From Candidatus Omnitrophota bacterium (GTDB taxonomy: Bacteria; Omnitrophota; Gorgyraeia; Zapsychrales; Zapsychraceae), in contig JAGQKV010000005.1 in NCBI GenBank assembly GCA_020429915.1, positions 136,279 to 200,278 on the forward strand: a stretch of DNA of 64,000 bases, written 5' to 3'. The notes below the pieces were generated by a model. That model made no database searches. It saw only the letters and a list, made by a program, of their open reading frames with translations, and had not been told where the DNA came from. The translations under genes and the position numbers were made by a program. How positions within the stretch are numbered: the first letter of the stretch is position 1; each line of letters opens with the position of its first letter. Below are positions 16,779 through 35,467 of the stretch, piece after piece.

Positions 16779-17747
16779 TTGAAAAGAAACATGAATGTTT
16801 TTGGTTTGATCATCGTTGGTCTAACCGTCACTAGTTTAGCCGGATGCGATCAATTCGCGTCCGGCACCGGAAAGATGCAAAAGCAGGACGCCGCAGCGGC
16901 ACCACAGCAACAACAGGCCGCACCTCCCCCGCCCCCCGCAGCAACCCCGAAATCAGCTCAGCAGGCAAAACCGCAAACACCCAAACCGTTATCCGGAAAT
17001 GAACTTGCCCGGGTCGGCGAGTGGCGTATGACGCTCGATGAATTCAATGAGCGGCTCAGTGCGGTCCAAGAAGTTATGCCGGGGTTTGATGCGACCGATC
17101 CGCAGGCCAAAAAATTGATTTTGGAGGAGTTGGTGCGGCAGCAATTATTGGTGGAGTATGCCGAAGAGGCCGGGATCGCAAAAGATCCGGACGTGGTGGC
17201 CGCCTTGGACGAATTTCGGCGGACCCTGTTGGTTAGAGAGGCCGCATTGAGGCTGACCGAAGACATTCAAGTCTCCGACGAAGAAGCGATGGCCTTCTAT
17301 GAAGCCCGCAAGGACCAAATTGTCCAGCCGACGGAATTCCGGGTCCGTGAGATTGTCGTAAAAGACAAGGTCAAGGCCAATGAGCTGTTGGTGGAGATAC
17401 TCAAGGGATCAGATTTCGTTGAGCTGGCCAAGGCCAACTCGATCGGTGACACCGCCGCCAAAGGCGGGGATTTGGGTTATATTACCGAAGAACCCTTCTT
17501 CGAAATGGCCGAGCAGATTCTTGCTTTGCAGCCGGGTGAGACCAGCAATGTTTTCCAAGGGCCTAAGGGCTTTTATATTATCAAACTGGAAGATGTTCGC
17601 GGCGGTGGCCCGATTCCATTCGAGGAAGTTAAAGAAGAAGTCGTCAGTTCCCAGCTGTTACTGAAACAACAAGAAGTCATTCTTGAACAGATAGAAAAAG
17701 TCAAACAGAAAACGCCGGTTGAGGTCAGGGAAGAGTTACTTAATTAA
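16779..17747 (+). CDS. Lipoprotein with Pro/Gln-rich linker and C-terminal parvulin (PpiC-type) PPIase domain
   Basis: Lipobox L-A-G-C, QQQQAAPPPPPAATP linker, and PpiC motifs (GGDLGYITEE...GFYIIKLEDVRGG). TTG start at 16779, or ATG at 16791. Confidence 0.7.
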   Translation: MKRNMNVFGLIIVGLTVTSLAGCDQFASGTGKMQKQDAAAAPQQQQAAPPPPPAATPKSAQQAKPQTPKPLSGNELARVGEWRMTLDEFNERLSAVQEVMPGFDATDPQAKKLILEELVRQQLLVEYAEEAGIAKDPDVVAALDEFRRTLLVREAALRLTEDIQVSDEEAMAFYEARKDQIVQPTEFRVREIVVKDKVKANELLVEILKGSDFVELAKANSIGDTAAKGGDLGYITEEPFFEMAEQILALQPGETSNVFQGPKGFYIIKLEDVRGGGPIPFEEVKEEVVSSQLLLKQQEVILEQIEKVKQKTPVEVREELLN

Positions 17748-17759: not shown

Positions 17760-18641
17760 ATGAATATCGAGAATAAAAAACAGTTCGCCACTATCGCGCT
17801 GGCGGTAGGCTTGGGTCTGACGGCCGCATTTTTAATGTCCCAATACGTCAAGAGCAGCATTGAGAACCAAACAAAGGCCTTGGCGAAGGATTATGAGAAG
17901 AAGGCGGCCGCACAAACCGCGGCATTGCGCAAGGAAATGGAAATCAAGAACCGGGAACTGCAGAAGCAAATGCAGGCTATGGCCAAGCAGCAACAGCAGG
18001 CCCTTGCTCAGCAGCTCGCCAACCTTCCCAAAGGCGGTGGAGTCAAGGCGACTACCGGGGTTCCCACGCAGATCGTCGATAGTACGGTCTTCGCGTCCAT
18101 TACTCCTCCGGGAAAGCGCGCCATCACATTGCTTATCGACTCGCTGTCCGCGGTCGGCGGTTTGGTCAATCCGGGCGACTATGTTGATATTTTGGGCGAA
18201 CTGGAGATTCCGCATCCCCAGGATCCTCAGGAAAAGCCGATTGAAATCACCTCTGTTCTGTTCCAGAACGTTCAGGTGCTGGCGGTCAATGCGAATTTTA
18301 AACCCGTGGGAAGCGCGCTGGTCTATCAGCAGCAGCAAAAGTCTCGGGCCCTTAACGTGACGCTGGCGGTCGATCCGGAAGAAGCCGGTTTGATCACATT
18401 TGCTCAAAAGTACGGAAAACTCAAGCTGGCGTTGCGCTCGCCAGCCGAGAAGGAGACCAAAGCCCTACAGGTGGCGGCCTGGGATTCCCTCGCCGACTAC
18501 GTTTTAGATAAACAAGGTACAGAACTTAATCTACCAAAAGCCAAAGCGCCGAGCAGGGTGGAAAACGACTACGTAGAAGAAGACTTGCAGGTCGATGATA
18601 CGCCCTTTGTGGAAATATTTCGGGGAGGCAGGGAGCTATAA
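17760..18641 (+). CDS. cpaB: Flp pilus assembly protein CpaB/RcpC-like
   Basis: N-terminal TM and coiled coil. The C-terminal RcpC-like block reads RAITLLIDSLSAVGGLVNPGDYVDILGEL...VQVLAVNA...LNVTLAVDPEEAGLITFAQKYGKLKLALRS. Confidence 0.7.
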   Translation: MNIENKKQFATIALAVGLGLTAAFLMSQYVKSSIENQTKALAKDYEKKAAAQTAALRKEMEIKNRELQKQMQAMAKQQQQALAQQLANLPKGGGVKATTGVPTQIVDSTVFASITPPGKRAITLLIDSLSAVGGLVNPGDYVDILGELEIPHPQDPQEKPIEITSVLFQNVQVLAVNANFKPVGSALVYQQQQKSRALNVTLAVDPEEAGLITFAQKYGKLKLALRSPAEKETKALQVAAWDSLADYVLDKQGTELNLPKAKAPSRVENDYVEEDLQVDDTPFVEIFRGGREL

Positions 18642-18644
18642 ATC

Positions 18645-20330
18645 ATGAAAACATCAACACACAGTAAATTTCTCACTTGGTTCATACTATCTTTGGTATT
18701 GCTGTTCGGAATGGGATTTCTGCCGGGTCAGGCCGCGCATGCGGAAGATATGGTGGATACCGTGTACGCCGATGAGGTCAACATGATTTTGGGTGAATTA
18801 ACCCAGCTAAAAGTCTACTCCTTAACCAGGCTTTCCATGACCGATCCGGAAATTGCTGATGTTGTTGATGCCGACGACTCACAAATCCTGCTGATTGCCA
18901 AGAATACGGGTCAAACTCCCTTGTTTATCTGGGACGAATACGGCAAGAGGGTCGTGATGATTAACGTGTCCGGGACCGAACTGACTTCGATTGCCGACCG
19001 CCTGCAAAAACTCTTCACCGATGCCGGCCTGAAGCACGTTTATCTGGACGTCAACGGACCTGAGGGCAAGGTCGTCATTACCGGTACTGTTCCCGAATAC
19101 AAGCAAATTCTTTTCGAGGATATTGTTTCCCCCTTTGATGAGCATATTATTAGCTTGGTAGAAGAGCAGGATATCGAAGACCTCGTCCAAATTGATGTTC
19201 AAATCACAGAGTTGAGTACCACGTTGACTAAGAGTCTCGGTATCGACTGGTTCTCGGCCGGAAGCGGCTCCGGAGATTCAGGATCCGGAGGAGGCCCTCT
19301 CAAGCTGAGTTACGGGGAAGATATTCCTACTTTTGACGGTTCGGTGGGCGATTTCTTCAAAATCGGTGATTTCCGCCGGGCAGACTCGCTGGTGGCCACG
19401 GTGAACGCCTTATTGGAAGAAGGGATGGGACGCATCCTCTCTCAACCGAAGTTGGTTGTCTTGAGCGGGGAAGAAGCGAGTTTTCTGATCGGGGGGGAAA
19501 TTCCGATCCGGACCACGACCTCCACCGGGGATTCCGTTCAAGAGAACGTGGAATTCAAAGAATACGGGGTGGGGATGACTGTAACCCCAACTATTCGCAA
19601 GGAAAAGATCGACGTCATCCTGAATATTGAAATTAGCGATATCGATGCCGCTAACGCCGTTGGCGAGGACGTCGCTTTCACTACGCGGAGCGCTAGTTCG
19701 CAGCTCTTTTTGGATGACGGGCAAACGATCGTCCTGGCTGGTTTGATTCAGCAGCGTACGGCGGAATCAATCAAGAAAGTTCCCTATTTGGGTGAAATCC
19801 CGATCCTGGGTCTGATGTTCCGGTCCAGATCCACTCCGACGCCGGATTTGGATACCGAGTTGGTAATCTCCCTGACGCCGTACCGCATTGATACGGGCTT
19901 GAATCCATTAACTACGGAAGAACACAAACGGATGAAGGATCAACCGAGATCCTCCGTTTCCCGCGCTGTGGTTGATGACATGGATATGAAGGAAGCGCCT
20001 AAACCCATGGCCACATCGGCTGTGCGCATTCCGGATGAAATGAAGGATTATGTGCGTGAAGTACAACGCAAGATATCTCAACAAATCGTTTATCCGCGGG
20101 AGGCCCGCGAATATGGTTGGGAAGGTACGGTTAAGCTCGGATTGCACATCCTGAACGACGGTACGCTGGCGTATGCCTTGGTCAAGGAATCTTCGGGCCA
20201 TGAAGTTTTTGATGATTACGCCCTAAATACGGCCAAAAACAGCGCTCCGTACAACAGTTTTCCTTCAGATTCCGACCTTCAGGAACTGAATATTACAATT
20301 CCCATCGTCTACAGTTTGCAAAGGAATTGA
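18645..20330 (+). CDS. cpaC: Pilus secretin (CpaC/RcpA family) with C-terminal TonB_C-like domain
   Basis: Signal peptide, then the secretin core (ILSQPKLVVLSGEEASFLIGGEIPIRTTT...EFKEYGVGMTVTPTI...TIVLAGLIQQ...VPYLGEIPILGLMFRS). The last 90 aa or so match the TonB C-terminal fold: YPREAREYGWEGTVKLGLHILNDGTLAYALVKESSGHEVFDDYALNTAKNSAPYNSFP. Confidence 0.85.
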   Translation: MKTSTHSKFLTWFILSLVLLFGMGFLPGQAAHAEDMVDTVYADEVNMILGELTQLKVYSLTRLSMTDPEIADVVDADDSQILLIAKNTGQTPLFIWDEYGKRVVMINVSGTELTSIADRLQKLFTDAGLKHVYLDVNGPEGKVVITGTVPEYKQILFEDIVSPFDEHIISLVEEQDIEDLVQIDVQITELSTTLTKSLGIDWFSAGSGSGDSGSGGGPLKLSYGEDIPTFDGSVGDFFKIGDFRRADSLVATVNALLEEGMGRILSQPKLVVLSGEEASFLIGGEIPIRTTTSTGDSVQENVEFKEYGVGMTVTPTIRKEKIDVILNIEISDIDAANAVGEDVAFTTRSASSQLFLDDGQTIVLAGLIQQRTAESIKKVPYLGEIPILGLMFRSRSTPTPDLDTELVISLTPYRIDTGLNPLTTEEHKRMKDQPRSSVSRAVVDDMDMKEAPKPMATSAVRIPDEMKDYVREVQRKISQQIVYPREAREYGWEGTVKLGLHILNDGTLAYALVKESSGHEVFDDYALNTAKNSAPYNSFPSDSDLQELNITIPIVYSLQRN

Positions 20331-20386
20331 CCTCGGTATATAATACTGTCTCTTATAAAAATACCGAGAGGTTTTAGAAGCAGGGC

Positions 20387-22552
20387 ATGAATTGTAGAGT
20401 CATTTCTATCTTCAGCAGCAAGGGAGGCGTCGGAAAAACCCTTGTGGCTGTTAATCTTGCGACCGCATTGAGCAAATCCGGCAAGCGTGTCCTGCTGGTT
20501 GATCTTGACTTTCAGGCAGGCCAGGATATGGCCCGCATGCTCAACCTCGCCATTCGCAATTCCATCGTCGATATCATTCCGTTGATGCAGCAAGGTGGTG
20601 AAGCGCTCGAAATCAACGAGCACGCCACGAAACATCAGAGCGGTCTACATTTTATTCCCGCCGTTAAGACCAGCAAGCAAATCGCGCACATCACCCCGGA
20701 TAATATCAAGCCTTTTTTCCGCGAGTCCAAAAAACGTTACGACTACATCATTATTGATGCCGGCCGATCGTTTAGCGATGTTCTCATTTCCGCGCTGGAC
20801 TTTACCAATTTGATATTGCTGGTAGCCACACCCGACGTATTGGCTGTTTACCAGACCAAATGGTGCCTGGAGATCCTTCAGAACCTGCACTATCCCACCA
20901 AGATGATCAAACTTATTCTGAACCGGTCGGAAAGCCGGGGGAGTGTTGCGTGGCAGGAAATCCGCCAGGTGTTACAGGTGGAAATTTTCGGGCACATACC
21001 GTCTGATGGGAAAACTGTGGGGATGGCTCTTAACCGGGGGGTCCCGTGCTACATGGACAGTCCGCGCAGCCCGGTGGCCGAGGCATTCGGCAAAATGGTC
21101 GGACTGCTGAAGAAAGACAATCTTTATATCGAGACACATGATGTGGAAAAGACTCGGACGGTAGACGGATTTATGGCGCCGGGGGCGTTTTGGAAGAAAT
21201 TCGGGATATCCCAGCAGTCCTTCGGCACATCGGTGACCGAATATGTATCCGAAGAGGACGATATTATCTCTCTCAAGAAGCGCATTCACGAAAAGCTGGT
21301 GGAACGGCTTAACTTAGACGGTATTTCTACAGACGCCTTGGCCGACCCGGACACGGCGCAGAAGATTAAGAAAAGCGCTGAACAGGTCGTGCTTACACTT
21401 TTACTGGATGAGGCCGGGGGCCGTATATCCAACCAAGAAGACCGCACGCGGATTGTCCGGGATATTGTCAACGAGGCTCTGGGGCTGGGGCCACTGGAAG
21501 ACTTTTTGGCGGACCCGGACGTTACGGATATCATGGCCAACAACAAGGACGAAATTTATATTGAGAAGAACGGTAAGTTGATATTTACCAATAAGAAGTT
21601 TGTCTCGAACGACAAAATGCGCTCGATCATCGACCGGATCATTGCCCCGTTGGGACGGCGTATTGATGAGTCGACGCCCATGGTTGATGCGCGACTGCAG
21701 GATGGATCACGGATCAACGCGATCATCCCCCCTCTTTCCCTGAATGGGCCGATGATTACGATCCGGAAGTTCGGTCAGGAGCGGTTGGAGGCTGAGGATT
21801 TGATCACCCGTTATCAAAGTATGTCCCGGCCCATGGCCGACTTCCTTAAGGCCTGCGTAAGCGCCCGTAAGAACTTAATTGTCTCGGGCGGGACCGGCGC
21901 AGGCAAGACAACACTCTTGAACGTGGTCTCCGAGTTTATTCCTGATGGGGAACGTATTATCACGATTGAGGATGCTGCCGAGTTGAAATTAAAGAAAAGC
22001 CATTGGGGACGGCTTGAATCCCGCCCTGCCAATGTGGAGGGGAAGGGGGCGGTTACCATCCGTGATCTGTTCATCAACTGTCTGCGGATGCGTCCGGACC
22101 GTATTGTGGTCGGCGAATGTCGGGGCCCGGAGGTTCTGGACATGCTTCAGGCCATGAATACCGGGCATGACGGTTCTATGACCACTCTGCACGCTAATTC
22201 CACCCGTGATGTCGTTACCCGTATGCACTCCATGATCCTTCTGAGCGGGATTGAGCTGCCGGTCCGCGCGATCAATGAGATGATTTCTTCGGCTGTCCAG
22301 GTAATTGTCCATATCAACCGTTATTCGGATGGGACCCGCAAGATTACGGGTATCAGCGAGACCGCCGGGCTCTCGGCAGATTTTCAGCTCATCCTAAAAG
22401 ACATTTTCATTTTTCGGCAGAAAGGTCTGGATTCGGACGGAAATGTCCAAGGATCCTTTGAGGCAACGGGATTCTTACCGCAGTGCTTTGATGACTTTAC
22501 CACCAAAGGCATCCTCTTTGAAAAGTCATTATTTGATAAACCAGCCGTGTAG
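20387..22552 (+). CDS. cpaF: Fused MinD/ParA-like (CpaE/TadZ ATPase domain) - CpaF/TadA secretion ATPase
   Basis: The N-terminal 260 aa have the deviant Walker A SSKGGVGKT (CpaE/MinD-like). The C-terminal 450 aa are CpaF-like (IRKF, GGTGAGKTTLLN, VGECRG, GHDGSMTTLHANS). Confidence 0.85.
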   Translation: MNCRVISIFSSKGGVGKTLVAVNLATALSKSGKRVLLVDLDFQAGQDMARMLNLAIRNSIVDIIPLMQQGGEALEINEHATKHQSGLHFIPAVKTSKQIAHITPDNIKPFFRESKKRYDYIIIDAGRSFSDVLISALDFTNLILLVATPDVLAVYQTKWCLEILQNLHYPTKMIKLILNRSESRGSVAWQEIRQVLQVEIFGHIPSDGKTVGMALNRGVPCYMDSPRSPVAEAFGKMVGLLKKDNLYIETHDVEKTRTVDGFMAPGAFWKKFGISQQSFGTSVTEYVSEEDDIISLKKRIHEKLVERLNLDGISTDALADPDTAQKIKKSAEQVVLTLLLDEAGGRISNQEDRTRIVRDIVNEALGLGPLEDFLADPDVTDIMANNKDEIYIEKNGKLIFTNKKFVSNDKMRSIIDRIIAPLGRRIDESTPMVDARLQDGSRINAIIPPLSLNGPMITIRKFGQERLEAEDLITRYQSMSRPMADFLKACVSARKNLIVSGGTGAGKTTLLNVVSEFIPDGERIITIEDAAELKLKKSHWGRLESRPANVEGKGAVTIRDLFINCLRMRPDRIVVGECRGPEVLDMLQAMNTGHDGSMTTLHANSTRDVVTRMHSMILLSGIELPVRAINEMISSAVQVIVHINRYSDGTRKITGISETAGLSADFQLILKDIFIFRQKGLDSDGNVQGSFEATGFLPQCFDDFTTKGILFEKSLFDKPAV

Positions 22553-24887: not shown

Positions 24888-25061
24888 TTGAGTTGTACAC
24901 ACCCTTGGGGTGTTTTATCCTTCGCAACCGGGCGATAACCGGTTGTGAAGTGTCGTTCCCGGAGCATTGGAGACGGGCACGACAATATAGCTCTCAGGAT
25001 TCTGTCGATCTGTATCAATGATGAGAGCGAGGTTATCTGTCCAGTACGTAAGGTGGTTACG

Positions 25062-25229
25062 ATGAGGCTAATGCAGAAAGTCGTTAGGAACAGAAAAGGT
25101 CAGAGCATACTAGAATATGCCATCATCGCAACTATTGTGGCGGCAGCAGCCATTGCCATGAGTACCTACGTATTTCGGTCGGTTCAAGCAACCCAACAGA
25201 TAATTCTTCAGGAATCCAGAAATCAGTAA
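25062..25229 (+). CDS. Flp/Epd-like pilin 1 (55 aa, likely major pilin)
   Basis: MRLMQKVVRNRKG|QSILEY plus a hydrophobic helix. SD AAGGTGG lies 7 nt upstream. The track ORF is 5'-extended beyond the real start. Confidence 0.75.
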   Translation: MRLMQKVVRNRKGQSILEYAIIATIVAAAAIAMSTYVFRSVQATQQIILQESRNQ

Positions 25230-25290
25230 CCTAGTGACGTATTTTTGCTAGGGCTTTATCCTAAGGTGAACTTTTTTAAGGAGGAAGACA

Positions 25291-25512
25291 ATGCTTAAAA
25301 GGAATATAGCAATTAATGCTAAAAAGAAAAAGAAAGGTCAGAGTACCATTGAGTATATCATCTTGGTCGCTGCCGTTTTGGCCGCTCTATTGGTCTTCTT
25401 GGGACCGGGTGGTATCTTCCGTACGGCTTTTAACAATACACTGTCTACAGGTACCAATGGTATGGAGGACATGGCCAACCGTCTGCAATCATCACGGCCG
25501 ACTAGCAATTAA
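25291..25512 (+). CDS. Flp/Epd-like pilin 2 (73 aa)
   Basis: KKKKKG|QSTIEYIILVAAVLAALLVF, with SD AAGGAGG. Confidence 0.75.
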   Translation: MLKRNIAINAKKKKKGQSTIEYIILVAAVLAALLVFLGPGGIFRTAFNNTLSTGTNGMEDMANRLQSSRPTSN

Positions 25513-25559
25513 TGTCCGATAACTCAATGTTTGGTATGAATCAATAGGAGGATAAATAA

Positions 25560-25919
25560 ATGTTTAGAAAGTTGCTGAAAAACAAGAAGGCGCAAAATAC
25601 CGCCGAGTATGCAATCCTTATTTCATTGGTTGTAGCCGGTATTATTGCGATGCAAACGTATGCACAGCGTGCTCTACAAGCACGTGTACGTGACGCTGGA
25701 CAGTACCTGGCATCACAATCAGCTGCCCTGGGTAACACGAACCAGTACGAACCGTACTATCTGACAACTAACTACCTCGTGAGTTCTAACTCCGCGCAGA
25801 CACAGTTGTTGGATAACCAGACCATCCGTACTGAGTTGGATAACAACAGAACTCGTGCTTCTGGTGGTTTCCAGACATCAGCGTATGACACTTCATTGGG
25901 TCTAATTCAGGGGCTGTAA
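25560..25919 (+). CDS. Pilin-like protein 3 (119 aa, Ala at -1, QYEPYY motif)
   Basis: KNKKA|QNTAEYAILISLVVAGIIAM, with SD AGGAGG. Confidence 0.7.
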   Translation: MFRKLLKNKKAQNTAEYAILISLVVAGIIAMQTYAQRALQARVRDAGQYLASQSAALGNTNQYEPYYLTTNYLVSSNSAQTQLLDNQTIRTELDNNRTRASGGFQTSAYDTSLGLIQGL

Positions 25920-25983
25920 TCAGAAGATAGAGGTTTAATCCCTCTGAGATATCCTCAGAGGATTAAGTTAGGAGGATATATCA

Positions 25984-26310
25984 ATGCTTAAGTACTTCAA
26001 CAAAAGAAAGAAAAAAGGTCAGAGTACGTTGGAATACGCTATTCTGATTATCATTATTATCGGTGCGCTGTTGTCAATCCAGGTCTACATCAAGCGTGGT
26101 GTTCAAGGCCGTTTGAAGGGCGCTGCTGATGACATCGGTGATCAGTTCTCTAACGGAAACACGAATGTCGTCAAGAAAATGATCACTTCTTCTCAAACAC
26201 GTGACACATTCGCATCAGGTGTGACTGCATCCACTTTGACTCAGGATGAAGTCACGCTGGAAATCATGAACTCTGACGTTATGAATCTTAACCAAGAGTT
26301 CTGGGGATAA
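25984..26310 (+). CDS. Pilin-like protein 4 (108 aa, RGVQGRLKG motif)
   Basis: KRKKKG|QSTLEYAILIIIIIGALLSI, with SD AGGAGG. Confidence 0.7.
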   Translation: MLKYFNKRKKKGQSTLEYAILIIIIIGALLSIQVYIKRGVQGRLKGAADDIGDQFSNGNTNVVKKMITSSQTRDTFASGVTASTLTQDEVTLEIMNSDVMNLNQEFWG

Positions 26311-26349
26311 TAAGTATTGTGTAATATAATCACAATATGAAAATTCCTT

Positions 26350-26405
26350 AAACAAAACATGGCTTATTCGGGGGGATTTCTTCTCGGGTAAGCCATGTTT
26401 TGTTT
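26350..26405 (+). terminator. 17-bp stem hairpin after pilin gene 4 (terminator or mRNA stabiliser)
   Basis: AAACAAAACATGGCTTA pairs with TAAGCCATGTTTTGTTT across a 22-nt loop, followed by T-rich sequence. A TATAAT box at about 26459 lies downstream. Confidence 0.5.
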
Positions 26406-26497
26406 ATGTTTGTTAATATCTGCTGGCGACTGACCTTGGTGATTTGGCACCAATTGCGCTATAATATAGTAAGAACGCAATGCCCATAAGGATTCGC

Positions 26498-26893
26498 ATG
26501 CTACGAAAAATACCAAAAATCAGGATCACCGGTCAAAGGGGGCAGATGATTGCCAGCGAGTACGTTATTACGTTATTTATAGTTGTGGCTGTTATCTCAG
26601 GTCTTTCCGTTTTTTTCCGGCGGGCCGTACAGGGGCGTATCCGGGACGCCCATAACAGCATGCTCAATATAGTTCGGGATCGTATTGGGTCTCAATATGC
26701 GGGCAATAGCGTCTACATTCAGTATGAACCGTACTACCGCATTACCGATTCTGAATCGACTGTGGCCAACAACAATCAGAAGCAGGTACTTCCTTCATAC
26801 CCCTTATCTTCGGGGCTTTACCGGTCGAACCCGAATGAACAGTCACTGAGAATATCGAATACGACGACACTACCACCTGTAAATGCGGATTAA
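26498..26893 (+). CDS. Pilin-like protein 5 (about 131 aa, QYEPYY motif)
   Basis: Start chosen at the ATG with SD AAGGA (MLRKIPKIRITGQRGQMIASEYVITLFIVVAV). The track ORF begins at 26480 without an SD. Confidence 0.6.
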   Translation: MLRKIPKIRITGQRGQMIASEYVITLFIVVAVISGLSVFFRRAVQGRIRDAHNSMLNIVRDRIGSQYAGNSVYIQYEPYYRITDSESTVANNNQKQVLPSYPLSSGLYRSNPNEQSLRISNTTTLPPVNAD

Positions 26894-26895
26894 CT

Positions 26896-27240
26896 ATGCT
26901 TAAGAGTCTCGCCAAAAACAAAGAAGCACAGTCCATGATTGAGTATACTACTATACTTATCACTGTTATGGCGGTAATCGCGGCTATGAGTACCCTTGTT
27001 CGCCGTTCGTCGCAAGGTTGGATTAAGTTGGTGGCTGACCAGATCGGCGTGCAAAATCTTGCAGACCAAAGCTTTAACGACCTGAGGCAGGCGCAACTGG
27101 ATTCCAGCTACTCGCTTGTTCGATCTGATACCTCGAAAAGTACCTTAGAAACGGCCGGGATTATCAACTATATTTTTGATGACGCCGTTCGTACCGACGG
27201 AAATCAGTCCATTAATCTGGGGATCGTGCCGGAGCCCTAA
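26896..27240 (+). CDS. Pilin-like protein 6 (114 aa, Ala at -1)
   Basis: KNKEA|QSMIEYTTILITVMAVIAAM. Confidence 0.7.
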   Translation: MLKSLAKNKEAQSMIEYTTILITVMAVIAAMSTLVRRSSQGWIKLVADQIGVQNLADQSFNDLRQAQLDSSYSLVRSDTSKSTLETAGIINYIFDDAVRTDGNQSINLGIVPEP

Positions 27241-27258
27241 TACCTGCGAGGATAGATT

Positions 27259-27582
27259 ATGCTTAAGGTGTTGAAAATAAAAAACAAAGGACAATCAGCG
27301 ATAGAGTATTCGGTAATCCTGATTGTCCTTATGGGGGCCTTTTTGGCTTCGGCGAATTACTTTAAGCGGGGCGTTCAGGGCCGATGGAAGGAGTCCACAG
27401 ACTCATTGGGAGATCAGTATGATCCGCGGACATCAAATGGGCTGATCATCCATCGTTTGATCTCTAACCAAGCCACAGCCCTTACCGCTATTAGTACGCC
27501 TCAAGGATTGCAAACCACCAGACAGGATCAAACCAACTCATTGGAGCTAAAAAGCGGTTCTATCAACGTGGGAGCCTATTAA
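27259..27582 (+). CDS. Pilin-like protein 7 (107 aa, RGVQGRWK motif)
   Basis: KNKG|QSAIEYSVILIVLMGAFLA. Confidence 0.7.
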   Translation: MLKVLKIKNKGQSAIEYSVILIVLMGAFLASANYFKRGVQGRWKESTDSLGDQYDPRTSNGLIIHRLISNQATALTAISTPQGLQTTRQDQTNSLELKSGSINVGAY

Positions 27583-27603
27583 CTTGCCAAAGGGGCAACG
27601 GAC

Positions 27604-28896
27604 ATGAATCCGACGGTCGGATCAAAAAAGCATAGCAAGGCTCAAACCGCAATAGAGTTGGCGGTTTTCGGTTCTGTTATTATTTTTCTGATGGGGTTGA
27701 TTGTCCGAGCGGTGCTTGGGACGTCTTATCAACAAGGCAGCCAATTAAAGGCGCTCCGTCTGGCCATGTTGACCTCCTTTGAGTATAGCGAAGGGATCAA
27801 GGCGCCGCCGGGAGATTGGCGGGATGGAACGACCTCCCGTAACGCCGCATCTGTTTTAATCATCGAAGACCGGCTTTCAGCATCTTCCGCAAAATTCGCC
27901 ACGGTGGACCGGACGCCGATTTTATCTCAAGGAACCGCTACGCATTCGCGGAACTTATTCATGCCGGTGGAAATAGGTGAGTACGCCAATATTCCCATCG
28001 CAGATTTCTTCGTCAATGGTGTACATATTCCATTAACCTTAGGAGGGTTTGTGACCCACCCGTTGGATGACGTTGTTTTCCGGCAACGATTTAACCATGA
28101 GGCCACCGATTTTCGGCAATGCAGCGGGAACGTAAATTCGGTGTTCGAAGTCGTGAACGGAACGACTTGGTATCGCTTCGATCTGGATCACAGCGGCGGC
28201 GTGCCCAATGACGGGGTGGATGACACCAACTGTGACGATTTTTTCTGGCAGTGGCATGCCGGAGATCCCAGCCGGATTGATCCCGAGACCGGCGAGTGGA
28301 CAAACGTCGATGTGGATGCTGATGGTTACCCCGAACAGGTCTTGAGGGTAAACGGGGCTGCCAGCGTTACCACGTTGGATTATCAGGAAGGCGATATATA
28401 TTTCTCCAATGATCCGTCTGTCCCGGCGCCGGGATTCGGAAATCAGGAGGTCCAGATGTTTACGTTCTCCGACAATCCCCTGGGCACGGGCGACGGCGTA
28501 GGCACCTATTTGCGGGTAGATGAGGGGCGGTTATTTTCCCCGCTGACGGGACGGTACGCTCGGGATGCCCAGCGCAAGGACTCCGTAGACATCATCCAGC
28601 GAACGTTGCAATTGACCAAAAACACGGAAAGATTCTGTACTAATGCCGGAGTGTTAGTCACGGCCGGAACACCGGAGGGGAATCGGGCCGGATGGACGGC
28701 AGCGACCCCTAATCCTGTGGAAGTATGTTGTAGTGGCAGCGGATGTTGTTTTGGTCCGGTTACCATAACCCAGACTTGTATGGTGTATGATCAGCCGTAT
28801 CCGCTCATTTATGTGCGGAGTAGAATCGTGGATAAGCACGGCCGGAAGTATATTACACCGACCGACTCCGATCCGGTTGTAAACTTCACACGATAA
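27604..28896 (+). CDS. TadE-like pseudopilin with large C-terminal domain (430 aa)
   Basis: SKA|QTAIELAVFGSVIIFLMGLIVRAVLG matches the TadE-type N-terminus. The C-terminal region contains CCSGSGCC. Confidence 0.65.
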   Translation: MNPTVGSKKHSKAQTAIELAVFGSVIIFLMGLIVRAVLGTSYQQGSQLKALRLAMLTSFEYSEGIKAPPGDWRDGTTSRNAASVLIIEDRLSASSAKFATVDRTPILSQGTATHSRNLFMPVEIGEYANIPIADFFVNGVHIPLTLGGFVTHPLDDVVFRQRFNHEATDFRQCSGNVNSVFEVVNGTTWYRFDLDHSGGVPNDGVDDTNCDDFFWQWHAGDPSRIDPETGEWTNVDVDADGYPEQVLRVNGAASVTTLDYQEGDIYFSNDPSVPAPGFGNQEVQMFTFSDNPLGTGDGVGTYLRVDEGRLFSPLTGRYARDAQRKDSVDIIQRTLQLTKNTERFCTNAGVLVTAGTPEGNRAGWTAATPNPVEVCCSGSGCCFGPVTITQTCMVYDQPYPLIYVRSRIVDKHGRKYITPTDSDPVVNFTR

Positions 28897-28950
28897 GAAG
28901 TATTGTCGAAAAGAGTTTGTATGTATAATGGTAAAGGCAGGTGATGCAAG

Positions 28951-29247
28951 ATGTTGAAAACTCAGTGCAGAAAGGCCGCCAAATCACGTGGACAGACCAT
29001 GATCGAATTCACGTTTTGTATGATTATCGTATTTTTGATGATTTACTCTATCACCAAGGTTTTTGAATGGTCTGGTCGGGAACTGGTGTCGCGGAGAGTG
29101 GGACATACGTCCCGGTTAACGACTTCAGGCGGGGGCCTTACCCGAAGTTATACCTCCGCCGCCGATAGTGAGCAAATAGCCCAAATATCCCCGTTTTATT
29201 CTTCCGGGGTCGACATGAATGCCGTTTGGCGAGGCGGGGTTAACTAG
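28951..29247 (+). CDS. TadE-like minor pilin (98 aa)
   Basis: KSRG|QTMIEFTFCMIIVFLMIYSI. Confidence 0.6.
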   Translation: MLKTQCRKAAKSRGQTMIEFTFCMIIVFLMIYSITKVFEWSGRELVSRRVGHTSRLTTSGGGLTRSYTSAADSEQIAQISPFYSSGVDMNAVWRGGVN

Positions 29248-29251
29248 AATA

Positions 29252-32200
29252 ATGACCAAATTTCTTCACAATCTCCAGCGTTCGAAAAAAGGTCAGGTGG
29301 CCGTCGTAATACTGTTGATTGTGGCCTTTGCCCTCATTTTTTATGCCGCTACGTTGAATCTGGGTCGCATCGGGCAAAACAAAGTGGTTACGCAGATCGG
29401 CGCCGCGCAAGGGGCATCCGCATTGGCCTCGGCCATGGCCAGTTACGGGCAATCCCTGTTTATGCAACAATTGGGCGGCCGCCAGAAGAAATGCCAGTCT
29501 TCCGGGCTGTTGGGGGCCATTTTGGGATTTGTTTTGGCCGTCGTTCTTACCATATTTCTCTGGGAAGCGGCACCCGCCACCATGCAGCTCGCCGCCCAGG
29601 CCCTTTTGGTCATCGGGACGGTCCTGGCGGCCACAAGTCTAGTCCTACAAATTACCGTCATACAACCGGGTATTACCAGTGCGTGGAACAGCCTAGCAGC
29701 GGATCTCTTGCCGCTTGTGGACCAGTTTATGGAAAATGCGCTACGGGGTGCGCTGCAAAGTGCGACCTCAGACCCGGTTCAGGTTCCTGACCTGAACGAT
29801 ATGGATCTGGACGGGTCGTTCGGTTTGGATGCGGTGACCAGTGAGGCGATCGACAACATATCCCGGTTCAGTCTGTACTATGCCCAGATATTTGACGGTA
29901 TTACGGTCAACTTTATCCCCGAAGCAGAGAATTTTCAGGTGGCCCTTCAGGATTTTGTCTACCAGTTGCCTCCCGTAGGTCCGAACACCACGGCCGGGGG
30001 ACTTCCCGCCACCTGTGGTGCTGCTCCGGCCTGCGGACCCGATCAGGAATGTGTCGATGTGGAAACCGCCCCCGTTTGTGTCCCGGCATGGGGGCTTTGG
30101 GATCCTCTCCCCGAGTATTTTGTCCCCGGGCCCATTCGGCCGCCACCAATTGATGTTATCTATCCATTTACGATACCACAAGATTTGACGCACCCGTGCT
30201 TTAGTGATCCTGCGAACGTACCATCGGTGTGTAATCCGTGTTGTCTTCCGTTAACGACACCTGACCCCAGGGGACCTTCCTTCGGTCAGCTGAGGGCTAG
30301 GCCCGGTTGTTGCGAGTGTTCTACCCTGCCCTCCGTCATCACCATTCCGGACCCCACCGACCCGACCGGTGTAGCGACGATAGATGTGTTTAATCCGGAT
30401 TTCTGTACCGTGGACGGATGTATTGATGCGTGTGGCGGCCCGTTGCAATGCCCTGTAAACGCGGCATCGCGGGCCTGTTGTGATGCTTGCGGGGATATTA
30501 CCCAGGAATGTGGAACGTCAGCCACCTGTCAGGCCCTCAGCCCCTACGGATTCACCGAGCCCACACTGGGAACCTTTTACGCGTGGGTCTATAACGCCTA
30601 TGAAGAAAATTGGGAAAACTCGTTCCGGTCCTTCCGTGAGCAACTCGGCCGGGATGATGAGCACCGTCTGTATTTCAAGGATTCCAGCAACCCCAATTGG
30701 GCGCCACAATTTGCCCCGCCTTGGCTGGGAAGTCGGTTTTATGCGGACGACTCGACTGGTTTTTATATCGGTCTTCCGGTCGTTCCTCCGGCTGTCGGGG
30801 AAAACCGGCGTGGCGTCTTTCCATTTTTATGGAAGATTACAACGTGGGGGTATGATCTGGATGATTTAACCACGCCCGATCCTACGGATGTGGATCCCAT
30901 TGATGATCCGTTTGACCAACGCTGTAAGTGGTGCGATGAAAATCGCGGGGTGGTTTGTGATCCGCGTCTGCCGTATCAGATGGTACAGTTAAATTTACCC
31001 TTTGATCCCACAACTCTAACTATTTACCCAACATACTGCGTCGACACCTATATTGATAACGTCAGTCTGATCCCATCAGGGGGATCGCTTGAATATCCTG
31101 CCGCGACGTGTGTCGATCCGGATACGTATGCAGGAAACGCATTTTGGAAGCGGGGCGCCGACCGGTTCTGTTCGGAAGGCGACATTGGCGGGGATTCTGC
31201 CTGGCCATATGAAAGCCAGTGTCCGAAATATACGGATGGTGGCTGTTTCCTGGATCCAAACGGCAACGGGGTGGCTGACTGTCCGGCAGAGTGCGACACG
31301 AACGGCAACGCGATTCCGGCCCTCTGCCAGTGTGGCGATCCCTCGGCGACGGATCCTTTGCTCGTACGCGGGGATCTCTTCCCGGAAGATGTATTGGATG
31401 AGCTCATATATGGTTTGACCGCGTTTTTTGACGATGCCAACGCATTTCTTGCCAGGGGACGGGCGAACATCGCTATTGATTTTGAGAATTGGTTTAACGA
31501 CTGGCAGGCCTGGATTGACCCCGGTCCATGGGCCAATCAAGCCGATGTGCTCGGCGATCCGGCTTATCCCAATCCTTATCCGGACTGCTACCCTTGGGAT
31601 ACCGACTATGACCCATCAACGCCCGACGTCTGCCAATCGGAGCCCGGGCAACTGTATTATTGGCTGCGTAACATCAATTTGATTCATGATGAACTTATTG
31701 AGATCAAGGAGACAAGCCATGCCGGCGTCAACTGTAACCGGGACCCGTGGTGCGTTCCCATTGCCGGTTGTGCAGATGTATCCGCATTTGAAGAGGTTAC
31801 ATTCGATTATAATGCCAATGGCATCAACGGCGATGTCGAAGACATCATCGCATGTCTGACATTCAATGTGGATGGCTACGACTACGCTTGTAACGGCGGC
31901 GTTCCAGACGCTACGTGTCTGAGGGCTACGGGAGACCGACAGGGGAACGATTTCCGTTATGCCAATTGTATGTTGTCCTGTTCAGCCGCGGCATGTACCA
32001 ATTTGCCGCGGTCTGTGTTGGCGCCCGCAACTTACGATCCGAACGCATATGTAGCGGCAAACGTCCTGGACGAACCGGATATGTCGGCCATGCTCTTGTG
32101 TGTCCACAGCTGTGGTAATCCCACTTGCACCGCCTTGCCCGCAAACCGGAGTTCAGACGGGACGCCGTACGTTTATACGGCTACGCCGCCGCCGGCCTTT

Positions 32201-33172
32201 GATCCGGCCTTGGATTGTACCGGATTACAGCTGAATGATGCCAACGGCTGGCGGACAGCTGTCCGGGATTCTCTGTTGATGGCTAACCCTACATGTGACA
32301 TCGCACCCGGAGGCTGGCTGGATCTGACCGGGACTTCGGCTATTGAGGCTGCAAATCAAGTTATAAAGATGCAATTGCGCCGCGACTTTCTCGAGGATCT
32401 CGTCAACGATATGAATCAGTTTATCGTCACCATGAATACGGCCCGGATCAAGTTTTATGAGTTTCTGACGGCCCCCGGCCCAGTGGCCGACCTGATTCAG
32501 GCTCGATTTGACTATGATGCGAATCCACCGGATCATTTCCCGTTCCAGGCCATTTATGGCTGGCAGGATCCGATCCCGCCTGAAATTCGTCTGGGAGCCC
32601 CGGGAGGCGAATCCTATTGGCATATCGTCAAAGTTGAGGGACGAATGCCCAAGAGGTGTGACAATGCCTGCGGTGTAGGCGGAAATCCGGATCCCGAGTG
32701 GCCCAAAGTCCGCACATATACCAAGAAGATGGGATTGAAGCGATGTTATGAACTGGTTAACACAGATGGTATCGTCAAATTCCGTGTGTTACGTTTTGAC
32801 GAGGCGCCTAATTCGACGGGAAGTGGTCTCACATTCCCGAACGGACAGCCGCTGTGGAAATTCCGTTTCTTCCACCCCAGCCCTAATCGAGGGGATGTTG
32901 ATGCCGCTACACTGGGGACCACATGTGACTCGATTATGATCACAGATCCCAGAGTGCCGGTAGATACGTTCAAAGGGGCGTTTTTCATGAACCAGCGGGT
33001 CGGAACTGGAGATACAGACCCTGTTTTGGGGAATAATTGGAACTGTTGGAACAGAACCCACTTCATTCTTGCCAATGGCGGGATTGGAACAGAAGTGTGC
33101 GCACAATATTACCTTAAACAGGGTGTTCGCCCCGGTATGACATTTTCATTTATCCCTTGCGAAGCGTTCTAA
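29252..33172 (+). CDS. Giant TadG-like pilin-domain protein (1306 aa) with two extra TM helices and an extremely Cys-rich extracellular region
   Basis: Start at the ATG 29252, just after the upstream gene's stop at 29247. N-terminus SKKG|QVAVVILLIVAFALIFYAATLNLGRIG is TadE/G-like (PF13400 type). More than 70 Cys, in CxxC, CC and CxC clusters. Confidence 0.7.
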   Translation: MTKFLHNLQRSKKGQVAVVILLIVAFALIFYAATLNLGRIGQNKVVTQIGAAQGASALASAMASYGQSLFMQQLGGRQKKCQSSGLLGAILGFVLAVVLTIFLWEAAPATMQLAAQALLVIGTVLAATSLVLQITVIQPGITSAWNSLAADLLPLVDQFMENALRGALQSATSDPVQVPDLNDMDLDGSFGLDAVTSEAIDNISRFSLYYAQIFDGITVNFIPEAENFQVALQDFVYQLPPVGPNTTAGGLPATCGAAPACGPDQECVDVETAPVCVPAWGLWDPLPEYFVPGPIRPPPIDVIYPFTIPQDLTHPCFSDPANVPSVCNPCCLPLTTPDPRGPSFGQLRARPGCCECSTLPSVITIPDPTDPTGVATIDVFNPDFCTVDGCIDACGGPLQCPVNAASRACCDACGDITQECGTSATCQALSPYGFTEPTLGTFYAWVYNAYEENWENSFRSFREQLGRDDEHRLYFKDSSNPNWAPQFAPPWLGSRFYADDSTGFYIGLPVVPPAVGENRRGVFPFLWKITTWGYDLDDLTTPDPTDVDPIDDPFDQRCKWCDENRGVVCDPRLPYQMVQLNLPFDPTTLTIYPTYCVDTYIDNVSLIPSGGSLEYPAATCVDPDTYAGNAFWKRGADRFCSEGDIGGDSAWPYESQCPKYTDGGCFLDPNGNGVADCPAECDTNGNAIPALCQCGDPSATDPLLVRGDLFPEDVLDELIYGLTAFFDDANAFLARGRANIAIDFENWFNDWQAWIDPGPWANQADVLGDPAYPNPYPDCYPWDTDYDPSTPDVCQSEPGQLYYWLRNINLIHDELIEIKETSHAGVNCNRDPWCVPIAGCADVSAFEEVTFDYNANGINGDVEDIIACLTFNVDGYDYACNGGVPDATCLRATGDRQGNDFRYANCMLSCSAAACTNLPRSVLAPATYDPNAYVAANVLDEPDMSAMLLCVHSCGNPTCTALPANRSSDGTPYVYTATPPPAFDPALDCTGLQLNDANGWRTAVRDSLLMANPTCDIAPGGWLDLTGTSAIEAANQVIKMQLRRDFLEDLVNDMNQFIVTMNTARIKFYEFLTAPGPVADLIQARFDYDANPPDHFPFQAIYGWQDPIPPEIRLGAPGGESYWHIVKVEGRMPKRCDNACGVGGNPDPEWPKVRTYTKKMGLKRCYELVNTDGIVKFRVLRFDEAPNSTGSGLTFPNGQPLWKFRFFHPSPNRGDVDAATLGTTCDSIMITDPRVPVDTFKGAFFMNQRVGTGDTDPVLGNNWNCWNRTHFILANGGIGTEVCAQYYLKQGVRPGMTFSFIPCEAF

Positions 33173-33195
33173 GCTTATGTCTTGGAGGCATTTGT

Positions 33196-33558
33196 ATGCT
33201 TGTGCAAATTCATAGCCGTAAGGCTCAGTCCACAATTGAGATAGCCAGCTTGGTGGTCTTTGTGCTCACGGCAATGTTAATCTTTCAGAAATACATCGCG
33301 CGCGGTATGTATGGCCGCTGGAAACAGGTCGGTGAATCCTTCGGACAAGGTCGTCTTTACGATCCAATTACTTCAGTTGCCTGCGGCTACGATCAGTGGC
33401 AGGATACCGGTCTTTGGTTCAATCAAACCTGTTTTGACGAGGATTGCGGCGAACGGGATTGCGTCGCCGAGACCAAAGATGATGCTAACTGCGTAACATG
33501 TATTAGCACAACTTGTCGATCCAGTTATGGTGGTCGCGACGTATGTAACGATCCGTAA
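33196..33558 (+). CDS. Pilin-like protein 11 (120 aa, Ala at -1, Cys-rich C-terminus)
   Basis: Start at the ATG with a GGAGG SD. SRKA|QSTIEIASLVVFVLTAMLIF, plus the ARGMYGRWK motif. Confidence 0.65.
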   Translation: MLVQIHSRKAQSTIEIASLVVFVLTAMLIFQKYIARGMYGRWKQVGESFGQGRLYDPITSVACGYDQWQDTGLWFNQTCFDEDCGERDCVAETKDDANCVTCISTTCRSSYGGRDVCNDP

Positions 33559-33735: not shown

Positions 33736-34593
33736 ATGCTGATCCTAATCCTACTTTTGGTCGCGGCCTCGGTAACATTAATCGGCTGGCAACTTATTCC
33801 GAGTGTCTACAGCCGCACGGCCGTTATCAGCGAGCGACGTCAACAAAAGCTCTCCAATACCATGGAGAAGGTGATGTCGCGGACGGATGCCCGCAAGCTC
33901 AGCCGGGTGTTCATTATGGCCCCGCTCATCCTTTCCGCGGGTTTCTATTTCATTTTCCCAGCAGAAATGCGGTTTTTTGGTATCGTCTTCGGTCTTATTC
34001 TGGGCCTCCTGTTTCCGGGTATTTATATCCAGATGTTGACCGGTAAGAACCGGGAAAAATTCGACGCGCAACTCATTGATGCCCTTATGATTATGTCCAG
34101 CTCCTTCCGCGGGGGGTTGAGTTTGGTCCAGGCCATGGAGGCCGTGGAGCAGGAAATGCCGGATCCGATCCGCAAGGAGTTCGGTATTGTCCTCGGGGAA
34201 AACAAGATGGGGGTTTCGCTGGAAGAGGCCCTCAACCACCTGTACAATCGTATGTCATCCATATCTTTGCAGCAAATGATCACGGCCATCTTGCTGGCCC
34301 GGGAAACCGGTGGTAACCTGCCGGTTATTTTTAATCGGATTGTAACCAATATTCGTGAAAGCCGAAAGATACAACAGAATTTGGATACACTTACGATCCA
34401 GGGGAAAATTCAGGGGGCGGTTATGACCCTGCTTCCCATCGGGTTCGGTTTTATTGTTTACTCCACGAACCCACAGATGATGGAAAATATGTTCACATCG
34501 CAACTCGGCCGCAGTTTGTTGATCTACGCGGCCTTTTCGTGGTGTATCGGGGCCTACATGGTGTGGAAAATTAGTACTTTTAAGGATTTCTAG
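33736..34593 (+). CDS. tadB: Flp pilus assembly inner-membrane protein TadB (T2SS-F fold)
   Basis: 285 aa, with TM helices and a cytoplasmic GspF-like domain. Confidence 0.8.
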   Translation: MLILILLLVAASVTLIGWQLIPSVYSRTAVISERRQQKLSNTMEKVMSRTDARKLSRVFIMAPLILSAGFYFIFPAEMRFFGIVFGLILGLLFPGIYIQMLTGKNREKFDAQLIDALMIMSSSFRGGLSLVQAMEAVEQEMPDPIRKEFGIVLGENKMGVSLEEALNHLYNRMSSISLQQMITAILLARETGGNLPVIFNRIVTNIRESRKIQQNLDTLTIQGKIQGAVMTLLPIGFGFIVYSTNPQMMENMFTSQLGRSLLIYAAFSWCIGAYMVWKISTFKDF

Positions 34594-34594
34594 T

Positions 34595-35467
34595 ATGTTT
34601 GCTATCTTATTGATTAACACATACTTATGTATATTTTTTATGATAATGGGACTAATCCCGGTGCAATGGGAACACCGTCCGACATTGAGCGCCTTGGGGA
34701 TTCAGCCCACGGCTCCGAAAAAGAAAAAAAGCCTGACTTCAATCATCCGGATTATTGCCAAGCTCAACAAGCCGGTCTGCCAAGGGGGGTTGCGGCAGCG
34801 CATCGAGAAGGAGCTGTCCATAGCGCATATCAATATCACGCCTGAGGAATTTGTATTGGCAAAAGAGTTATGTATTATACTCGTATTGTTTGTTACGTAT
34901 CCGGCGATTAGCCCGGATATGATGATGTTTTGGCTGTTCATGAGCATGGGGGTCGGGTATGTATTGCCGGAACTCCTTGTGCGCAATAAGATTAAGAAGG
35001 TGAAGGCGACAATTGTCAAAGAGTTGCCGGATGCGATCGACTTATTGGGGTTGTGTGTAAATGCGGGGCTTGACTTCATGCTGTCTCTCAAATGGGTGGT
35101 GGAAAAGTCACCACCCTCCGTAATGATCGACGAGCTCAACGTAGTATTGCAGGAAATTAATGTCGGGAAAACCCGCCGGGATGCTATCAAGGACTTAGCG
35201 GCACGTTATGAACTCCCGGATCTGTCCACTTTTTCCCGAACGCTTATCCAAGCCGACAAAATGGGGACTTCGGTTACCGAGGCCCTGAATATTCTCTCCG
35301 AAGACATGCGCCAGGCCCGTTATCGCCGCGGTGAACAGTTGGCCCTTAAGGCACCAATGAAGATGCTTGTGCCGCTGCTGATGTTCATTTTTCCGGTTGT
35401 AGGTATCCTGGTGGCCGGTCCGATTCTCCTCGACTTTATCGAAAACAATCCGTTCGAAAAGATGTAA
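34595..35467 (+). CDS. tadC: Flp pilus assembly inner-membrane protein TadC (T2SS-F fold)
   Basis: 290 aa, GspF-like (LPDAIDLLGLCVNAGLDF...). Its ATG is adjacent to the tadB stop. Confidence 0.8.
   Translation: MFAILLINTYLCIFFMIMGLIPVQWEHRPTLSALGIQPTAPKKKKSLTSIIRIIAKLNKPVCQGGLRQRIEKELSIAHINITPEEFVLAKELCIILVLFVTYPAISPDMMMFWLFMSMGVGYVLPELLVRNKIKKVKATIVKELPDAIDLLGLCVNAGLDFMLSLKWVVEKSPPSVMIDELNVVLQEINVGKTRRDAIKDLAARYELPDLSTFSRTLIQADKMGTSVTEALNILSEDMRQARYRRGEQLALKAPMKMLVPLLMFIFPVVGILVAGPILLDFIENNPFEKM

Follow-up and report, generated by a model that had tools for sequence, protein, structure and literature searches.

The outer-membrane secretin of the Tad/Flp (type IVc) pilus machine of Omnitrophota carries, in place of the short pilotin-binding tail of the canonical Tad secretin RcpA, a disordered tether of ~50 residues followed by a complete TonB C-terminal domain (TonB_C), all within one polypeptide. 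The gene encoding this protein lies in a stretch of 64,000 nucleotides from a Candidatus Omnitrophota bacterium (assembly GCA_020429915.1, contig JAGQKV010000005.1, positions 136,279 to 200,278 of the forward strand), which is referred to here as the window. Secretins form the gates in the outer membrane for type II and type III secretion, for type IV pili and for the export of filamentous phages, and the means by which they are positioned and stabilized in the envelope (pilotins, S-domains, wall-binding modules) constitute a central theme of the field.

The assignment of the protein to the Tad-type secretins, as put forward in an initial annotation of the locus, is borne out by its domains, its closest relatives and its genomic setting. 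The match to the Pfam Secretin profile (PF00263) reaches 138 bits for a cut-off of 27.5 and places the protein in the secretin superfamily, while its CpaC-type N-domain scores 37 bits against a cut-off of 23 (PF13629) and is modeled by AlphaFold2 as all-beta, with a predicted local distance difference test (pLDDT) score of ~90. Among PDB sequences, the secretin core is nearest to 8jvb (E-value 1.2e-34), deposited as 'Type II and III secretion system protein' and whose membership of the Tad class we infer, and to Pseudomonas aeruginosa RcpA (8odn, 3.2e-32), with weaker matches to GspD (E-values of 1.5e-26 or higher) and PilQ (8e-21 or higher). The gene sits between rcpC and a tadZ-cpaF fusion in a locus that contains RcpC/CpaB, CpaF/TadA, TadB/TadC and Flp-type pilins, the components by which a tad locus is recognized, and that is syntenic in 61 loci. 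The likeness to RcpA and CpaC (P. aeruginosa RcpA, 8odn, PMC10499894) thus extends from the protein itself, with its signal peptide, T2SS-T3SS_pil_N-type N-domain and secretin barrel, to its surroundings, where it adjoins rcpC/cpaB and the CpaF ATPase and shares the locus with Flp pilins and tadB/tadC.

The C-terminal part of the protein is where it departs from this scheme. The last 90 residues or so had been read in the initial annotation as a TonB/TolA fold, and the domain is indeed found there, in a module that is slightly longer than originally described because its conserved helix starts at about residue 463. The TonB_C profile (PF03544) matches residues 480-558 (nucleotides 20082-20318) with an E-value of 1.5e-15 and 57.8 bits, against a cut-off of 24.6, and the match spans positions 2-79 of the 79 in the profile; the NCBIfam profile tonB_Cterm (TIGR01352) agrees (E-value 5.6e-12, 45.8 bits against 27.1), and TonB_2 matches the same protein more weakly (1.5e-4). 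These profile matches are far beyond chance. The peptide YPREAREYGWEGTV...APYNSFP corresponds to residues 483-540 of the 561-residue open reading frame (ORF), and a protein 100% identical to it (P0001) exists in a public assembly. An AlphaFold2 model of the last 115 residues, aligned with 31 diverse homologous C-termini (alignment A1), has a mean pLDDT of 83 (~90 in the core) and a predicted template modeling score (pTM) of 0.72, and shows strands at 48-57, 62-71 and 101-110 and a helix at 74-87 (fragment numbering), that is, the three-stranded sheet packed on helices that defines the TonB/TolA fold, and no other fold. In a Foldseek comparison with the PDB, the top 26 matches are all C-terminal domains (CTD) of TonB, HasB or FusB, or domain III of TolA, the best of them being the Helicobacter pylori TonB-CTD 5lw8 (template modeling score 0.81, target-normalized; root-mean-square deviation 2.2 A; 28% identity), and the A1 profile retrieves H. 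pylori TonB-CTD 6sly from PDB sequences (E-value 1.8e-12). The resemblance to the C-terminal domains of TonB, TolA, HasB and FusB includes the motifs YP-x-EA, G-x-EG-x-V, DG and SSG as well as the fold, and the helix preceding TonB_C has a counterpart in the extra N-terminal helix of a longer H. pylori TonB-CTD construct.

A full-length AlphaFold2 model built from a 70-sequence alignment (A3) resolves the protein into separate modules: the N-domain (44-109), an alpha/beta domain of the periplasmic ring type (113-174), the barrel (180-415), a helix (464-480) and TonB_C up to residue 556. The ring-type domain is made of elements H113-127, E132-137, E142-149, H151-164 and E168-174 at a pLDDT of ~88-90, the signal peptide appears as a helix at 3-24 with low confidence at 27-33, and the linker falls below a pLDDT of 50 at 420-424 and 431-459. 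The overall pTM is 0.42, a value to be expected when modules have no fixed mutual position. Foldseek matches of this model begin with 40 secretin chains, followed by TonB C-terminal domains; the structural neighbors of the secretin core include PilQ bound by TsaP (6ve2), and none of the PDB chains matched spans both the secretin and the TonB_C parts.

The fusion is real and selected, and it is conserved phylum-wide in Omnitrophota. The PF13629, PF00263 and PF03544 domains co-occur in all 120 listed homologs, which range from 100% to 44% identity and come from ENA, NCBI, JGI and Logan assemblies, and in the 61 loci of GTDB species representatives the matches reach query residues 556-561 at identities down to 37%. 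When 1.84 billion cluster representatives (50% identity) were searched exhaustively with HMMER, 616 had E-values of 1e-30 or lower, and the best 150 of these all belong to the secretin::TonB_C family. Profiles made from our own alignments detect N-domain, secretin and TonB_C in 128 of the 150; another 14 are N-terminally truncated fragments that retain TonB_C, and the remaining 8, which lack it, measure 256-418 residues and run no further than the secretin domain, as fragments at contig ends would. TonB_C is hence present in every apparently complete member among these best 150 representatives, and the extension singled out in the initial annotation proves to be conserved across the whole family. 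It might be argued that a frameshift in sequencing or assembly fused a secretin gene with the adjacent gene of a small periplasmic TonB_C protein. Such events are a general possibility in metagenome assemblies, and the secretin ORF is broken in one of the 62 orthologs (L061, 7325-9458), where the ORF call of 317 residues lacks TonB_C and a tblastn match nevertheless reaches query residue 561, a break likely due to a frameshift or an assembly gap. The same continuous ORF recurs, however, at identities of 100% to 30% in independent assemblies (ENA, NCBI, JGI, Logan), and it is found in the 61 species loci and the 128 cluster representatives; this conservation refutes the artefact, whose probability is negligible.

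All organism-named members of the family, including one at 30% identity, are Candidatus Omnitrophica or Omnitrophota; this taxonomic limit applies to named members, and the edge of the family lies beyond the best 150 of the 616 representatives. Contigs with an Omnitrophota-type cassette are also found under the title 'uncultured Planctomycetales' (L011-L013, L018, L022, L025 and others), and the same cassette occurs under the titles 'Elusimicrobia' (L045), 'Ca. Elulimicrobium' (L037) and 'Hydrothermarchaeota archaeon' (P0269). These titles probably reflect differences in labeling or binning and not a true occurrence outside Omnitrophota.

Mean pairwise identity is highest in TonB_C (0.70), followed by the secretin domain (0.65), the N-domain (0.55), the helix preceding TonB_C (0.52) and the linker (0.15), which together with the signal peptide is the least conserved region, so that TonB_C is the most constrained part of the protein, above the pore itself. 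In the A1 alignment its invariant or near-invariant positions fall in signatures typical of TonB_C, namely Y-P-x-E-A, G-W-E-G-T-V, D-G-T-L, E-S-S-G and F-D, and its last strand, P-I-V-Y-S-L, is very conserved. The domain ends 0-7 residues from the C-terminus throughout the family, and in the secretin of the window the C-terminal residues are this final beta-strand plus 3 residues. Pro (1.9x), Ala (1.7x) and Glu (1.4x) are overrepresented in the linker, which has no Pro-Glu/Pro-Lys repeat and starts from the barrel in the outer membrane rather than from the inner membrane. The length of the linker varies (median ~49 residues, up to 158), with gaps of 53-165 residues between the secretin and TonB_C matches in single-copy homologs and longer stretches between domains in two-copy members. 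The latter, 32 of 265 (~12%; e.g. P0011, P0015, P0084, L022, L029, L058), have TonB_C twice in tandem, with another short linker in between and the core motifs kept in both copies. A division of the copies into two ancient paralog groups was considered and rejected, as they do not separate cleanly (mean identities of 0.52 for T1-T1, 0.48 for T2-T2 and 0.45 for T1-T2). Given this lack of a paralog split and the within-protein identities of 0.34-1.00, TonB_C has been duplicated several times, and its copy number seems to be useful to the protein. Two representatives, of 1045-1091 residues, carry further sequence assigned to no domain.

The genes around the secretin (Table 1) form a cassette. Its gene order (Mdh, peptidyl-prolyl isomerase (PPIase), RcpC, secretin, TadZ-CpaF, DUF192 and so on) is preserved in nearly all of the 61 loci, and the core of the cassette is retained in the 30%-identity member (L062) in spite of a different outer chromosomal neighborhood. 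The first cassette gene, encoding a SurA/PrsA-like PPIase lipoprotein, is found in 57 of the 61 loci and in L062; the protein has Asp or Glu at +2 and a low-complexity tether rich in Pro, Gln and Ala. Because no TadD is seen in the cassette, the secretin may have a chaperone of its own in this lipoprotein. The gene rcpC lies upstream of the secretin in all 61 loci, and its product ends, after a variable acidic linker, in 12 near-invariant residues, P-[FY]-I-Q-I-F-R-G-G-[RK]-E-L (L001-L061), replaced in one subclade by ...K-[SAG]-G-[RK]-G-[AST]-N. This tail probably corresponds to the second strand in the hairpin that binds RcpA, here with an unusually long and variable loop. Downstream of the secretin, the TadZ/CpaE and CpaF/TadA functions, which canonical Tad systems encode as separate proteins, are joined in a single ORF in 59 of the 61 loci and in L062 (717 residues).

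Table 1. Features of the secretin gene and its surroundings (positions in the window; E, E-value).
Feature	Position	Strand	Basis or remarks
parB (origin region)	17-895	-	
parA (origin region)	932-1786	-	
yidC (origin region)	2095-3735	-	
dnaA (origin region)	4485-5822	+	
dnaN (origin region)	5971-7059	+	
gyrB, gyrA (origin region, 1-12309)	after dnaN	+	
SurA/PrsA-like PPIase lipoprotein	16779..17747	+	Pfam Rotamase_2 E 1.4e-19, SurA_N; lipobox LAG/C
rcpC/cpaB, inner-membrane alignment-ring protein, 293 aa	17760..18641	+	Pfam RcpC E 1.8e-24
secretin::TonB_C gene (Tad secretin with C-terminal TonB_C)	18645..20330	+	561 aa plus stop, ATG start; ORF, domain matches
Sec-type signal peptide, residues 1-33 (...GQAAHA/ED)	18645..18743	+	read from sequence; putative cleavage site
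RcpA/CpaC-type N-domain (T2SS-T3SS_pil_N), residues 43-108	18771..18968	+	Pfam PF13629 E 2.8e-9
alpha/beta periplasmic ring-type domain, residues 113-174	18981..19166	+	AlphaFold2 secondary structure
secretin barrel region, residues 180-415	19182..19889	+	Pfam Secretin PF00263 at 256-413, E 2.7e-40
flexible linker, residues 416-462	19890..20030	+	low pLDDT, low identity, variable length
TonB/TolA-type module: conserved helix 463-480, TonB_C 480-558, then 3-residue tail	20031..20318	+	Pfam, AlphaFold2, Foldseek
TadZ/CpaE-like ParA domain fused to CpaF/TadA ATPase, 721 aa	20387..22552	+	Pfam AAA_31 4-164, T2SSE 365-643
DUF192 gene	after tadZ::cpaF		
helix-turn-helix (HTH) protein, 552 aa	23008-24666	+	weak HTH_32 / transposase-type HTH matches only
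~ten Flp-type pilin/minor-pilin genes	24945..33558	+	KGQS-x-IEY motif read from translations
tadB and tadC platform genes	33736..35467	+	Pfam T2SSF E 4.6e-17, 7.3e-14
giant ORF, >9,000 codons	36946-64000, runs off window	+	Peptidase_C39 at residues 206-330

Further downstream, the 552-residue HTH protein resembles an insertion, yet it occupies the same position in 47 of the 61 loci and is on that account a regular component of the locus, probably a regulatory one. Among the products of the pilin genes are proteins of 430 and 1317 residues with pilin-like N-termini; the six Flp-type ORFs that were scanned gave no Pfam match at E-value 0.01, and a Tad-domain protein stands at the equivalent position in L062. 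A prepilin peptidase gene was not recognized in the cassette. Beyond the platform genes begins a giant ORF, for which Peptidase_C39 is the sole Pfam match in the first 4,500 residues. From ~38 kb onwards the G+C content climbs from ~0.45-0.48 to 0.54-0.61, with a strongly positive GC skew. At its other end, the window (1-12309) holds the chromosomal origin region, with the minimum of the cumulative GC skew at 4-6 kb, and the Tad cassette lies ~4.5 kb past gyrA, starting ~12 kb from the origin. The position matches that of the Tad locus reported at 12382-29832 in V. archaeovorus LiM (CP019384.1), and the locus is the 'Omnitrophota Tad complex' of Seymour et al. 2023 (PMC10066038). West-Roberts et al. 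2023 likewise described it, as a conserved secretion system (gspD, gspE, gspF, rcpC and a Rotamase_2 PPIase) preceding giant genes, and a role in attachment to or predation on other microbes has been proposed for the Omnitrophota Tad system beside giant genes.

What the TonB_C module does can be approached by comparison with the two families that the protein brings together. In canonical RcpA, the S-domain is a short, unstructured tail of ~17 residues, essential for secretin assembly, the last four of which bind the tetratricopeptide-repeat (TPR) lipoprotein TadD, its pilotin (PMC10499894). Here, a linker of ~50 residues and a folded TonB_C stand in its place, an architecture rightly described in the initial annotation as unlike that of the usual RcpA/CpaC, and the cassette genes scanned in the window and in L062 (loci of ~20 kb) include no TPR or TadD-like lipoprotein. 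The C-terminal domains of TonB and TolA, for their part, act by adding a short beta-strand of the partner to their own sheet, and the proteins bind their motors through an N-terminal membrane helix bearing the SHLS motif (PMC12204202). Those domains end inner-membrane-anchored, ExbBD- or TolQR-binding proteins that reach up to outer-membrane targets, whereas in the family analyzed here the domain is covalently attached to an outer-membrane protein: hydrophobicity at its N-terminus is confined to a signal peptide of cleavable appearance, after which the secretin domains follow, leaving no membrane anchor of the TonB type, and genes of the ExbB, ExbD and MotA families were not found in the cassette or its flanks in the window and in the annotated locus of L062 (loci of ~20 kb). 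Without such an anchor or ExbB/ExbD neighbors, TonB_C is not an energy transducer in its own right. In one system known from another phylum, TonB_C is likewise borne by a beta-barrel protein of the outer membrane and not by an inner-membrane anchor; its barrel family and the system itself are different, and no connection with pili or secretins has been described for it.

Since TonB_C occupies the position of the S-domain, TonB/TolA domains capture strands and the features of an energy transducer are missing, we propose that the module works as an adaptor, passive and multivalent, which captures strands, fastens the secretin to a conserved partner in the envelope and replaces the S-domain-pilotin link, a reading to which we assign a probability of roughly 0.5. 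If the secretin oligomerizes into 13-14 subunits, as P. aeruginosa RcpA does, it would bear a crown of equally many TonB_C modules, hanging from their flexible tethers beneath the outer membrane. By analogy with TonB and TolA, each of them would capture a short beta-strand of an envelope partner, and the crown as a whole would dock and hold the secretin, taking over the positioning and stabilizing job of the S-domain-TadD link. The anatomy is that of a tether plus a binder, with a disordered, variable and unconserved linker (0.15) leading to the most conserved domain of the protein (0.70). Candidate partners may be sought in the same invariant cassette, namely in the tethered C-terminal strand of RcpC and in the PPIase lipoprotein.

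Several observations weigh against this proposal. Four leads to a partner were examined (the RcpC tail, the N-terminus of the secretin, the tether of the PPIase and the co-variation of lengths) and none of them is decisive. The RcpC tail is strikingly conserved, but the canonical partner of the RcpC hairpin is the N-domain of the secretin, as in P. aeruginosa RcpA (PMC12307814), and the sequence alignment of RcpC with its solved counterpart 9gzr covers the D2 domain only. The [IVL]-D-[TS] motif at the start of the mature secretin is reminiscent of DT-x-x-V TonB boxes; it was rejected as an obligate self-ligand, being conserved only in the closer half of the 62 orthologs, and the divergent half keeps TonB_C without it. 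The PPIase tether bears no strand motif universally conserved across loci, the motif C-D-x-I-x-x-I-K-E-Y-F after the lipid anchor belonging to one subclade only, and not to the PPIase of the window, and the correlation between the lengths of the secretin linker and the RcpC tail (Spearman rho -0.30, p 0.04, uncorrected for phylogeny) is unconvincing. In addition, a TadD pilotin, ExbBD, TolQR or TonB-dependent transporters could lie elsewhere in the genome, the stoichiometry of the oligomer is extrapolated from P. aeruginosa RcpA, and the high conservation of TonB_C would also fit binding to peptidoglycan.

This last possibility amounts to a different, if somewhat unlikely, function, in which the crown of TonB_C modules would bind the cell wall and fix the secretin against the pull of a retractile Tad pilus, as a functional analog of the AMIN domains of PilQ, the LysM protein TsaP or ExeA-ExeB. 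The anatomy fits it equally well, for a multivalent, flexibly tethered and very conserved domain is what an invariant ligand would call for, and peptidoglycan binding by the C-terminus of TonB was proposed in the older literature. Tad secretins are not known to have a wall-binding module of their own. However, TonB/TolA C-terminal domains have been established to bind proteins, by the addition of a beta-strand (PMC12204202), and LysM, AMIN, OmpA_C and SPOR signatures were not found in the protein by Pfam and NCBIfam scans. Secretins with peripheral small binding domains, in cis or in trans, are exemplified by PilQ with its AMIN domains and the TsaP LysM ring in the type IVa pilus and by ExeAB-ExeD in type II secretion (PMC4098917), and these are the nearest functional analogies to the system described here. 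Their modules bind peptidoglycan, are N-terminal or separate proteins and have other folds, whereas the module of the Omnitrophota secretin is C-terminal and of the TonB fold.

The location of TonB_C bears in turn on a role restricted to biogenesis. S-domains exist to bind pilotins (PMC10499894) and TonB_C sits exactly at their position, TadD was not found in the cassette, and a SurA-like PPIase lipoprotein is encoded two genes upstream, as also seen by West-Roberts et al. 2023. The module could then be a built-in pilotin substitute for the transient delivery and insertion of the secretin into the outer membrane, for instance through an interaction with the PPIase chaperone or with a component of Bam or Lol, with no role in the mature machine. 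We consider this unlikely, as a transient signal need not obviously be the most conserved region of a protein nor be repeatedly duplicated, and nothing ties TonB_C domains to Bam or Lol.

The reach of the tether, on the other hand, invites the notion of energized coupling; the initial annotation had put forward an inner-membrane energizer, or else peptidoglycan, as what the channel might be coupled to. With a median of ~49 and up to 158 residues, it could span much of the periplasm, and inner-membrane RcpC bears a conserved, tethered C-terminal strand, so that TonB_C might engage a stator of the ExbBD or TolQR type driven by the proton-motive force (PMF), either directly, at the periplasmic domain of the stator, or by way of an inner-membrane protein bearing a TonB-box-like strand, and the PMF would gate the secretin or aid the export of pilus or cargo. 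Pseudomonas TonB paralogs have been linked genetically to type IV pilus function. A paper on transformation in Acinetobacter also involves TonB2 and TsaP. Yet the N-terminal membrane helix that connects TonB and TolA to their motors is missing from the protein, no ExbB, ExbD or MotA genes were seen in the cassette of the window or of L062, so that gene context lends no support, and the polarity would be opposite to that of every known Ton/Tol system, all of which renders energized coupling very unlikely. That opposite polarity can itself be taken as a proposal, one that we deem distinctly improbable, in which an inner-membrane component offers a TonB-box-like strand that the TonB_C of the outer-membrane channel captures; the RcpC tail P-[FY]-I-Q-I-F-R-G-G is the best candidate for it, and a PMF-driven stator the alternative. 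If true, the secretin would be a gate coupled mechanically or energetically, serving the pilus and perhaps also the export of the adjacent giant protein, in predatory or parasitic nanobacteria.

Part of the ground covered here was already known: the sequences are public and automatically annotated, and the Tad locus has been published. The secretin-TonB_C fusion, its phylum-wide conservation and their implications are not described in the literature searched, a coverage that excludes most subscription journals; TonB is not mentioned by Seymour et al. 2023 or West-Roberts et al. 2023, nor are secretins and Omnitrophota in a 2025 survey of TonB/TolA homologs (PMC12204202), and in a 2026 preprint 'TonB C-terminal domain' genes are listed as neighbors of giant genes, with no recognition of a secretin. 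The name 'TonB family protein' under which these proteins appear at NCBI is a misnomer, since the domain sits on an outer-membrane protein that has no membrane helix and no motor genes nearby; the members of the family are secretins. A genome survey has already included them under 'TonB-domain content', and their recognition as secretins corrects inferences on TonB-dependent import for the phylum.

More generally, a whole phylum appears to have swapped the pilotin-binding tail of its Tad secretin for a domain of the TonB type, and the greater conservation of this domain with respect to the pore points to an uncharacterized interaction in the envelope. The case of the Omnitrophota secretin thus extends the use of TonB/TolA C-terminal domains to covalent attachment on an outer-membrane protein, and the anatomy of this Tad secretin bears on how uncultivated Omnitrophota nanobacteria interact with their hosts.

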